Shown: piece by piece, positions 58,579 to 59,230 of the stretch
How positions within the stretch are numbered: position 1 is the stretch's first letter
How the letters are laid out: every line of letters begins with the position of its first letter
Assembly (NCBI RefSeq): GCF_016026235.1
Contig: NZ_CP065613.1
DNA: 64,000 nt
Strand: one strand, 5' to 3'
Source of the DNA: Escherichia coli
GTDB lineage: Bacteria > Pseudomonadota > Gammaproteobacteria > Enterobacterales > Enterobacteriaceae
The notes under the pieces: model-generated
Databases searched by the model: none
What the model was told of the DNA's origin: nothing
The model's input: only the letters and a program-made list of their open reading frames with translations
Position numbers and translations under genes: made by a program

Positions 58579-58598
58579 TCAAGTTCCCGTTGATGTTG

Positions 58599-58630
58599 AA
58601 AATCCCGGTCAGAAGATCGGGATTTTTTTT
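58599..58630 (+). terminator. rho-independent terminator after secF
   Basis: Stem AAATCCCG...CGGGATTT followed by a T8 run. Confidence 0.7.
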
Positions 58631-58706
58631 GATGTATGGAGATTGCGAAAATCCCCGCATCTTGGGAAACTGCGCGTAACCCTACATTTCATCCAGGTAA
58701 CTTTTC

Positions 58707-59054
58707 ATGGCTATCATCCCAAAAAACTATGCGCGGTTAGAAAGCGGCTATCGCGAAAAAGCATTAAAAATCTATCCGTGGGTCTGCGGTCGCTGTTCCC
58801 GCGAGTTTGTTTATTCCAACCTGCGTGAACTTACCGTTCATCACATTGATCACGACCATACCAATAACCCGGAAGATGGCAGTAACTGGGAATTGCTTTG
58901 TCTCTATTGCCACGATCATGAGCATTCGAAATATACCGAAGCGGATCAGTATGGTACGACCGTTATCGCAGGGGAAGATGCGCAGAAAGATGTCGGTGAA
59001 GCGAAGTACAACCCATTCGCTGACCTGAAAGCGATGATGAACAAGAAGAAGTGA
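58707..59054 (+). CDS. yajD: HNH nuclease family protein YajD
   Basis: 115 aa; Cys/His-rich HNH motif (CGRCSREF...HHIDHDHTNN...CLYCHDHEH). Confidence 0.85.
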   Translation: MAIIPKNYARLESGYREKALKIYPWVCGRCSREFVYSNLRELTVHHIDHDHTNNPEDGSNWELLCLYCHDHEHSKYTEADQYGTTVIAGEDAQKDVGEAKYNPFADLKAMMNKKK

Positions 59055-59068
59055 TTAAAACGTAAAAT

Positions 59069-59170
59069 TGCCTGATGCGCTACGCTTATCAGGCCTACGT
59101 TATTTCAGCAATATATTGAATTTACGTGCTTTTGTGGGCCGGACAAAGCGTTTACGCCGCATCCGGCATG
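59069..59170. repeat. two REP elements (BIME-like) in the yajD-tsx intergenic region
   Basis: GCCTGATGCGCTACGCTTATCAGGCCTAC and GCCGGACAAAGCGTTTACGCCGCATCCGGC palindromes. Confidence 0.8.
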
Positions 59171-59230
59171 AACAAAGCGCACGTTGTTAACAATCTGAAA
59201 TGCCGGGAATAAATCCCGGCATTTTCATAA

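Follow-up and report, generated by a model that had tools for sequence, protein, structure and literature searches.

The DNA analyzed here (the window, 64,000 nucleotides) consists between 52 and 64 kb of E. coli chromosome. The annotated gene order in this part is acpH, queA, tgt, yajC, secD, secF, yajD, tsx, yajI, nrdR, ribD, ribH, and nusB, with tsx and yajI on the opposite strand. The gene studied is an open reading frame that extends exactly from ATG to stop between secF and tsx, as expected for the stand-alone gene after secDF reported in a preliminary description; RefSeq annotation of E. coli lists it at this locus as "yajD: HNH nuclease YajD". An 801-nt query around yajD was 100% identical to E. 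coli chromosomes including that of strain FDAARGOS_943, and the yajD query was found at a coverage of at least 80% in 5225 of 5426 complete E. coli genomes. The coordinates of all features are given in Table 1.

Table 1. Features of the yajD locus and of the encoded protein (positions in the window)
Feature	Position	Strand	Description and basis
Intrinsic terminator of the yajC-secD-secF transcript	58598..58634	+	13-bp stem followed by T8; consensus scan and RNA fold
yajD 5' region, presumed own promoter and leader	58664..58706	+	read from sequence
yajD CDS	58707..59054	+	115 codons and stop, ATG start; ORF, profile matches, and genome annotation
N-terminal helices, aa 8-22	58728..58772	+	AF2 secondary structure (H8-12, H15-22) and column conservation
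Zinc-stabilized HNH (beta-beta-alpha-metal) core, aa 27-75	58785..58931	+	
Acidic linker of variable length, aa 77-101	58935..59009	+	poorly conserved, gapped in family alignment
C-terminal motif N-P-F-A-D-L-K-A-M-M-N-K-K-K	59010..59051	+	family alignment
Inverted REP pair (BIME-type repeat) between yajD and terminator	59068..59170	.	GCCTGATGCGCTACGCTTATCAGGCCTAC and inverted partner
Hairpin terminator common to convergent yajD (+) and tsx (-)	59197..59225	.	RNA fold

Comparison of the protein with the NCBIfam equivalog model NF008448 (YajD family HNH nuclease) gave a score of 210.3 bits at a cut-off of 87 (E = 5.3e-63), and the alignment ran end to end, with residues 2-113 on positions 2-113 of the 113-position model. 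The sole Pfam domain found in the 115 aa was HNH (PF01844), for which residues 27-75 aligned to positions 1-47 of 47 with 48.4 bits at a gathering threshold of 21.4 (E = 1.1e-12). It is near certain that the feature is E. coli yajD, a gene and a family already catalogued: E. coli K-12 yajD is the type member of the NF008448/PRK11295 family, and the gene in the window differs from it in nothing. The identification as YajD given in the preliminary description was thus borne out by the NF008448 score, the Pfam HNH domain, and the 100% identical E. coli locus. The family name of NF008448 is annotation only.

The hairpin after secF folded with a dG of -17.9 kcal/mol (z = -3.95), and none of 200 shuffled sequences was as good. 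Pluralibacter has this hairpin after secF as well, without a yajD gene at that site. Upstream of yajD, a conserved element GGGAAACTGCGCGTAACCCTACATTT was located at 58664-58689, and a Shine-Dalgarno-like AGGT was present at 58695-58698, 8 nt before the ATG. The genomic surroundings of yajD are different in Enterobacter sp. Ag1, Enterobacter sp. BIGb0383, and Cedecea, and a similar element is found 5' of the gene in these as well. A consensus scan upstream of yajD gave no match to the sigma-70 consensus, and inspection of the conserved element by eye revealed no convincing sigma-32-, sigma-E-, or sigma-54-like match. Downstream of the gene, the hairpin shared with tsx has a 12-bp GC-rich stem (dG -19 kcal/mol, z = -6.0) that was again unequaled in 200 shuffles, and a terminator downstream of yajD, given in that paper's own coordinates, has been validated in vitro (PMC12207403). 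Because hairpin terminators are present on both sides of the gene and the downstream terminator was validated in vitro (PMC12207403), yajD constitutes its own monocistronic unit. The arms of the intervening REP pair paired with each other in the RNA fold; in E. coli genomes, the 801-nt query matched at a median of 19 places, a multiplicity in keeping with REP DNA. The pair is missing from the Salmonella and Kluyvera versions of the locus and is an E. coli-specific component of the cassette, without a role in yajD function.

An AF2 model of YajD was built with an alignment of 67 sequences; a model from the single sequence reached a pLDDT of only 36.6. The PDB holds no solved YajD structure and no close relative by sequence. 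The N-terminal helices contain the residues Y15, R16, A19, L20, and K21, which are near-invariant in the family alignment, and conservation among the 67 sequences was almost full from Y15 to H73. The core has the predicted beta-beta-alpha-metal fold of an HNH domain and the Pfam HNH signature, with H46 as the general-base His, N60 as the structural Asn, H69 and H73 as metal-ligand His, and two CxxC knuckles. The four cysteines C27, C30, C65, and C68 form a predicted Cys4 zinc site and are all invariant in the alignment; in the active-site pattern H45-H46...N60...H69...H73, all His are invariant and N60 occurs in 66 of 67 sequences. These nine residues make up the compact Cys/His HNH motif described earlier. 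A family-specific loop, N53-N54-P55-x-D57-G58-S59-N60-W61-E62, occupies residues 53-62.

The core is near-neutral (pI 6.35) and rich in His (7 in 76 core residues). The linker behind it is acidic (pI 4.05, 6 D/E vs. 2 K/R), varies between 22 and 32 residues over 119 family members, and was modeled with a pLDDT of 54-75. It leads to a basic tail (pI 10.0) with the family consensus P-F-A-x-L-K-x-[ML]-[LM]-K-K, in which P103, F104, and L107 each occur in 58 and A105 in 56 of 67 sequences, and in which the AF2 model places a short helix at 107-111. This motif is kept in Nitrospira-type and other distant YajD members and is a candidate docking peptide (PFAxLKxxxKK). The described anatomy of yajD is near certain.

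Several further resemblances were examined and dropped. A PDB profile search matched solely eukaryotic C2H2 zinc fingers (Sal-like 4, ZBTB17), in which CxxC...HH with a 2-residue gap is a chance resemblance. Domain fusions as a clue to function were not upheld either: longer family members proved to be N-terminal extensions or read-throughs, a fusion to a BNR propeller (P0194) was found in one case only, and an AlkZ-like-YajD chimera (P0128) was confined to a single 761-bp contig and found nowhere else.

The amino-acid identity of YajD to the E. coli protein is 83-96% over the Enterobacterales, where Proteus, Morganella, and Dickeya each reach 92%. In Vibrionales and Alteromonadales it is 62-83%, with most values between 65 and 80%; the range of the family extends to Metallibacterium and Nitrospira. 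At loci of shared synteny, the conservation of YajD (92-96%) equaled that of SecD, SecF, Tgt, and NrdR. The codons of conserved residues were identical in only about 45-55% of cases among orthologues of 83-96% identity; therefore, yajD is truly coding. Synonymous sites were saturated, and the GC3 of yajD tracked that of its flanking genes (r = 0.92). Since codons have diverged at identical residues and GC3 matches the host, we conclude that yajD has long been resident in each genome under very strong purifying selection. Recent horizontal transfer, considered because YajD of Proteus and of Morganella is 92% identical to that of E. coli, was rejected on the same grounds of saturated synonymous sites and host-like GC3.

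Plasmid-borne copies of yajD do exist, mainly on Pantoea pPag1-type plasmids, and several further "plasmid" matches were mislabeled chromosome pieces. A conjugative Providencia resistance plasmid carries a Vibrio-type yajD beside qnr in an ISCR1-bounded segment, which shows one route by which yajD travels as a passenger. No YajD orthologue was detected in 50,697 phage records. The HNH genes of rV5-like and phiTE-like phages showed 47-51% core identity to YajD; a phage origin of yajD was dismissed, as there was just this core similarity and no orthologue.

The position of yajD was compared in one genome per species, with 80 YajD loci listed from Enterobacterales, Vibrionales, and Alteromonadales. 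Next to yajD, secF or the secF-tsx block was found in six of these 80 listed loci (Escherichia coli, E. albertii, two Pseudocitrobacter, Phytobacter, and Kluyvera), and the remaining 74 were without secF; in both Pseudocitrobacter, a 466-aa ORF is inserted between secF and yajD. Salmonella yajD occupies the same secF-side position as in E. coli. The block tgt-yajC-secD-secF-(tsx)-yajI-nrdR is intact in Pluralibacter gergoviae, Dickeya dadantii, Serratia plymuthica, and Cedecea neteri, where no HNH gene follows secF; these genera have yajD at unrelated sites. Klebsiella and Citrobacter have the order pncA, chitinase, yajD, yeaC, msrB, gapA. Alignment of the secF-tsx gap showed the secF terminator common to E. 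coli and Pluralibacter, followed by about 620 extra bases in E. coli. Salmonella and Kluyvera have a different yajD leader and an Ldr-type toxin cassette in this gap, and Cedecea has a glyoxalase and a WYL regulator. Hence, the secF-tsx gap is a variable cargo site with yajD as one occupant in one lineage.

The placement beside the Sec genes had been called conserved and unexplained in the preliminary description. This part of the claim did not hold: the adjacency is limited to the six of 80 listed loci and Salmonella, and four genera keep secDF without yajD. It is very probably incidental and local to the Escherichia/Salmonella lineage. Because the adjacency is rare across loci, the secDF block occurs without yajD elsewhere, and a strong terminator lies between them, no functional explanation is needed. 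The terminator and the unconserved linkage also place yajD outside the sec operon (queA-tgt-yajC-secD-secF). The puzzle of the Sec adjacency thus dissolves on inspection, and the finding as originally described adds nothing new.

The neighborhood of yajD was also searched for partner genes. The neighbors in the window are secF, tsx, yajI, and nrdR only, and around the 80 listed gammaproteobacterial loci 124 distinct immediate-neighbor clusters were counted. There was no recurrent neighbor family; no Pfam family occurred in more than three of the 121 distinct neighbors scanned for these 80 loci. An immunity, restriction, or toxin partner of yajD was found neither in the window nor among the 80 listed loci, so that the earlier statement that yajD has no partner gene in the window extends to 80 other genomes. 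Neighbors such as secF and tsx and the missing recurrent family also do not fit a nuclease toxin with immunity gene of the colicin, CDI, or T6SS-effector type. In Metallibacterium, recQ is the divergent neighbor of yajD and ligA lies 2 kb away, and in Nitrospira a gene for a 3-methyladenine glycosylase lies about 3 kb from yajD. These hints to DNA are weak, being single cases. A general linkage to RecQ was discarded: it is confined to Metallibacterium, the matches at other loci are helicases of about 24% identity, and no adjacency recurs.

Two readings of the genomic position can be weighed against these data. YajD might work with the Sec translocon, as its position after yajC-secD-secF implies. 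The adjacency is seen in E. coli, Salmonella, Kluyvera, Phytobacter, and Pseudocitrobacter, and an amphipathic basic C-terminal peptide could in principle touch the membrane; however, the E. coli tail has only a low hydrophobic moment (0.11-0.34), the strong terminator separates secF from yajD, the secDF block of Pluralibacter, Dickeya, Serratia, and Cedecea lacks the gene, the cargo of the secF-tsx gap varies among genera, and yajD is located elsewhere in 74 of the 80 genomes listed. A coupling to Sec is therefore already refuted by the genome comparisons and is extremely improbable. Alternatively, the varied positions could reflect mobility, with YajD as a selfish or conflict element, i.e., a homing endonuclease, a type IV restriction enzyme, a defense component, or a toxin without antitoxin. 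The change of position among genera, the Pantoea pPag1-type and ISCR1-bounded Providencia plasmid copies, the 47-51% core identity to the rV5-like and phiTE-like phage genes, and domain-level matches to Zorya ZorE (E = 4e-7) and phage HNH families are compatible with such an element. It is nevertheless very improbable, since 5225 of 5426 E. coli genomes contain yajD, its GC3 has been ameliorated to that of each host, its synonymous sites are saturated, and its product shows far more conservation than a conflict gene would. Furthermore, the 115 aa include no domain for DNA recognition or for reading modifications, neither a recurrent partner nor immunity or Zorya genes lie nearby, no orthologue occurs in the 50,697 phage records, and the plasmid copies resemble hitch-hiking chromosomal segments. 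For a free-standing or intron-borne HNH homing endonuclease in particular, near-universal presence in E. coli, purifying selection, amelioration, and lack of a phage orthologue are not the expected pattern.

A full-text literature search for "YajD" yielded no functional or biochemical study, in agreement with the earlier statement that the function is undefined; a full-text search for the locus tag b0410 returned unrelated reference labels only. A yajD deletion in Salmonella was without phenotype in growth, stress, and virulence (PMC3878590). Double mutants cbpA/yajD and ychN/yajD of Salmonella were sensitive to H2O2 (PMC3878590).

We propose, with a probability of roughly 0.55 for the composite, that YajD is a partner-recruited, weakly binding, metal-dependent nuclease in nucleic-acid maintenance, encoded by its own unit without a link to secDF. 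The intact HNH core suggests a metal-dependent nuclease or nickase. Its intrinsic affinity for nucleic acid would be low, given the non-basic core, and because of this presumed weak binding no immunity protein would be needed. A partner that binds the C-terminal peptide may recruit YajD to its substrate. The most likely substrate would be damaged or structured DNA, nicked at lesions or repair intermediates, and loss of YajD would cause only a conditional, redundant phenotype. DNA is suggested as the substrate because of the precedent of characterized stand-alone or modular HNH proteins and the oxidative-stress phenotypes of the double mutants; by this analogy, DNA maintenance as the target would have a slightly less than even chance. 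On the side of DNA maintenance stand the H2O2-sensitive double mutants (PMC3878590), RecQ and LigA near yajD in Metallibacterium, and the properties of the nearest characterized small HNH proteins, Gme HNHE and HlpB. On the other side, these weak hints comprise one genome context and double mutants with unrelated genes, and the neighborhood signal that is statistically notable (ArfB/NYN, 7 of 33 distant lineages) points to RNA and the ribosome.

This signal came from a second scan that started from distant relatives of YajD and covered 80 metagenome loci falling into 33 lineages at 70% YajD identity; neighbors were stop-to-stop ORFs picked by homology across loci. Neighbor diversity was again very high, with the exceptions of arfB and NYN genes. 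An intact, co-directional arfB directly adjoined yajD in four of the 33 lineages, downstream in two and upstream in two, once with an overlap of 4 nt. The adjoining arfB genes encode the GGQ motif and the basic tail and were assigned to ArfB by NCBIfam at 179 bits. NYN RNase-domain genes were located directly downstream of yajD in two lineages and just beyond an intervening arfB in another; in one further lineage, the distance to yajD was no more than 3 kb. An OST-HTH/LOTUS domain was detected in three of five NYN genes. Altogether, ArfB and/or NYN occurred near yajD in seven of the 33 distant lineages. Chance adjacency of one specific gene was roughly estimated at 6e-4 per genome, corresponding to about 0.02 cases expected in 33 lineages; by this rough estimate, the ArfB/NYN counts are far above chance if the 33 lineages are independent. 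Neither arfB nor NYN was found within 8 kb of yajD in the 80 listed gammaproteobacterial genomes, including E. coli. A survey of ArfB neighborhoods reported an association with a pseudouridine synthase only and no HNH gene (PMC6514570). The ArfB/NYN neighborhood of distant yajD genes is a new lead.

Two further readings concern the activity itself. YajD could be an RNA- or ribosome-directed nuclease of translational quality control that cuts or trims mRNA or other RNA on stalled ribosomes, thereby creating or clearing the substrate of ArfB, with the C-terminal peptide as its anchor to the ribosome or to a rescue factor. Some beta-beta-alpha-metal nucleases cleave DNA and RNA alike. Such a role would account for the co-directional arfB in both gene orders (4 of 33 lineages) and for the NYN RNase genes in four lineages at a chance expectation of only about 0.02 cases (rough estimate). 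However, the 33 lineages are possibly not independent, neither gene lies within 8 kb of yajD in the 80 listed gammaproteobacterial genomes, the ArfB survey gives the pseudouridine synthase association alone (PMC6514570), and no HNH-family RNase is found among the structural neighbors of YajD. We regard an RNA-directed role as unlikely, and rather improbable its fuller form, in which YajD is not a DNA enzyme and acts, tethered by PFAxLKxxxKK, as an RNA-quality-control nuclease with ArfB and, in some lineages, an NYN RNase that often carries LOTUS. Alternatively, YajD may bind nucleic acid and/or metal without cleaving, as a structural or regulatory zinc/histidine protein like HlpB of Bacillus subtilis, for which cooperative DNA binding was found and cleavage in vitro was not detected (PMC3765158). 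Since this stand-alone HNH-like protein gave no cleavage, catalysis by YajD cannot be assumed from motif conservation alone; the His-rich core (7 His in 76 residues) and single mutants without phenotype would also suit a mere binder. The (near-)invariance of H46, N60, H69, and H73 from Gammaproteobacteria to Nitrospira is, however, the pattern of retained catalysis, and a protein that only binds is improbable.

YajD is an unusually clear "conserved unknown": a protein of 115 aa, conserved over the Enterobacterales to the degree of SecD, Tgt, and NrdR and recognizable as far as Nitrospira. It combines an apparently complete nuclease active site with no immunity gene, no fixed neighbors, and no strong phenotype. 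The docking-type motif at the C-terminus, the near-neutral core, and the ArfB/NYN neighborhood make its function more testable. If the RNA-quality-control role with ArfB were true, the HNH fold would gain a new cellular role, and one of the most conserved y-genes of E. coli would have a function.

Among known HNH systems, the H-N-H DNases of the colicin E7/E9 type presumably have the same HH...N...H...H pattern as YajD with near-identical spacing (14, 9, 4 residues). In colicin E9-type DNases, the three His are transition-metal ligands; we take the spacing in YajD to imply a corresponding three-His transition-metal site with a general-base His. The near-neutral core (pI 6.35) of YajD is unlike these toxins. 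T4 endonuclease VII (PDB 1E7D/1EN7) was the best sequence match to a true nuclease in the PDB (E = 0.008) and has an H-x-D-H-D-H stretch and an LLC-x-x-C zinc knuckle in common with YajD. The HNH domain of EcoKMcrA (PDB 6GHC) belongs to a protein of 286 residues in this entry, of which only 77 were matched structurally by YajD. The large N-terminal part of McrA, which reads modified cytosine, is wholly missing from YajD, and YajD differs from McrA also as a conserved core gene. At 115 aa, with HNH as the only Pfam domain and no fused recognition domain, it does not resemble a type IV or McrA-like restriction enzyme. The profile of the RNA-guided endonuclease IscB (NF040563) gave 20.3 bits at a cut-off of 175, over the HNH portion only. 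Zorya type II ZorE (PADLOC PDLC00643) was matched over just the last 57 of 282 profile positions; ZorE itself is an HNH protein with a length of about 280 aa, and its gene accompanies zorA/zorB; no such neighbors of yajD are annotated. Membership in a defense system was rejected, as the matches to ZorE were at the domain level only.

A classification of His-Me finger proteins does not mention YajD. The closest characterized small HNH analogues of YajD are Gme HNHE of Geobacter metallireducens (Gmet_0936, PDB 4H9D) and HlpB (YisB) of B. subtilis. Gme HNHE is a nickase of weak, Mn-dependent activity with a preference for acid- or heat-damaged DNA, and HlpB is tied genetically to AddAB (PMC3765158; PMC5714182). 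Gme HNHE showed no sequence relationship to YajD by phmmer or by hmmsearch against the PDB, and it has HNN where YajD has H..N..H-H. YajD also falls outside the HlpB family, with 13.4 bits against the profile NF058586 at a cut-off of 130 (E = 0.08). HlpB adjoins addAB/sbcCD and is dispensable only when addAB has been deleted; YajD, in contrast, lacks fixed neighbors, and a Salmonella yajD deletion mutant is wild-type in growth and fully virulent. HlpB has been linked to DNA-repair intermediates and is, like YajD, a conserved, stand-alone, HNH-like chromosomal protein of about 100 aa without an immunity gene.

The interval between secF and tsx is a variable cargo site, as was revealed by comparing the E. 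coli gap (window 58579-59230) with L173:3973-4109, L176:3973-5271, L172:4908-5976, and L015:7885-8846, corresponding stretches of other records. In E. coli the gap contains yajD together with two inverted REP elements; an 801-nt query yielded a median of 19 matches per E. coli genome because these elements lie within it. Salmonella and Kluyvera carry yajD and an Ldr-type toxin cassette, Pseudocitrobacter an additional 466-aa ORF 5' of yajD, and Cedecea a glyoxalase and a WYL regulator. The gap is empty in Pluralibacter and Serratia; in Dickeya it is likewise empty, and tsx has been lost too.

Upstream regions of yajD were likewise compared. The E. coli leader GGGAAACTGCGCGTAACCCTACATTT differs from that of Salmonella and Kluyvera despite the identical locus, but resembles the leaders in Enterobacter sp. 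Ag1, Enterobacter sp. BIGb0383, and Cedecea, where yajD occupies different loci. Another leader type, GGGATATATTGG...CACTATCG...ACAGGTAAC, is common to Enterobacter asburiae, Pantoea, Proteus, Morganella, Moellerella, and Pluralibacter sp. UBA7423; Dickeya and Mangrovibacter match it in part. It seems that yajD moves together with its own short, putative promoter region.

Features at yajD loci and related phage records.
Feature	Position or record	Remark
E. coli yajD leader element	window 58664-58689	compared with upstream regions of L008, L013, L025
Two inverted REP elements (BIME-type repeat)	window 59068-59170	3' of yajD
yajD with arfB and/or NYN adjacency	L088:5001-6784	
yajD with arfB and/or NYN adjacency	L091:1793-2807	
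yajD with arfB and/or NYN adjacency	L102:3473-4345	
yajD with arfB and/or NYN adjacency	L114:897-1685	
yajD with arfB and/or NYN adjacency	L128:4001-5290	
yajD with arfB and/or NYN adjacency	L156:4001-4912	
yajD on Providencia plasmid pPROV162-1	L178:4042-5312	NZ_CP096316.1
yajD on Pantoea vagans pPag1	L171:4001-4348	NC_014561.1
Phage HNH resembling YajD core	OK181858.1	
Phage HNH resembling YajD core	NC_025830.1	Escherichia phage Av-05
Phage HNH resembling YajD core	NC_020201.1	Pectobacterium phage phiTE
Phage HNH resembling YajD core		Klebsiella phages

Plasmid copies of yajD were also identified. The conjugative multidrug-resistance plasmid pPROV162-1, which also harbors armA, encodes a YajD of Vibrio type, 74.5% identical to that of E. 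coli, whose score equals that of a Vibrio furnissii plasmid copy; a qnr quinolone-resistance gene adjoins yajD, and two ISCR1 copies flank both. The yajD segment looks like Vibrionaceae DNA captured along with qnr. Large Pantoea plasmids (~130-210 kb or more; 61 plasmid records) bear yajD away from the sec genes. Several yajD-matching plasmid-database records contain chromosomal genes (e.g., gapA, sppA, secDF, nrdR). These records, among them the Klebsiella "plasmid" pINF355 (L179), the Salmonella "plasmid" pN18S0406-2 (L172), and a number of E. coli "plasmids" of Mb size listed in PLSDB, are evidently chromosome pieces or entire chromosomes; plasmid tallies of yajD are therefore too high.

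Among distant relatives in metagenomes, yajD has recurrent co-directional neighbors, namely arfB, which encodes a ribosome-rescue peptidyl-tRNA hydrolase, genes with an NYN RNase domain, or both. The NYN neighbors often contain an OST-HTH/LOTUS domain. At one such locus (L088) the gene order is cls-yajD-arfB-NYN, with yajD and arfB overlapping by 4 nt.

Residues 24-50 of YajD (window 58776-58856; PWVCGRCSREF....LTVHHIDH) gave weak PDB matches to eukaryotic C2H2 zinc fingers, with E-values of 0.003 for ZBTB17 and, using the family profile, 5e-4 for Sal-like 4. Because the spacing differs by two residues, we regard the resemblance as sequence convergence of zinc knuckles and not as homology. HNH proteins of large myoviruses share 47-51% identity with the YajD core (aa 27-86), a similarity which hints at a recent common origin of this core and the myovirus HNH genes. 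These phage proteins are closer to the YajD core than any characterized cellular HNH protein.
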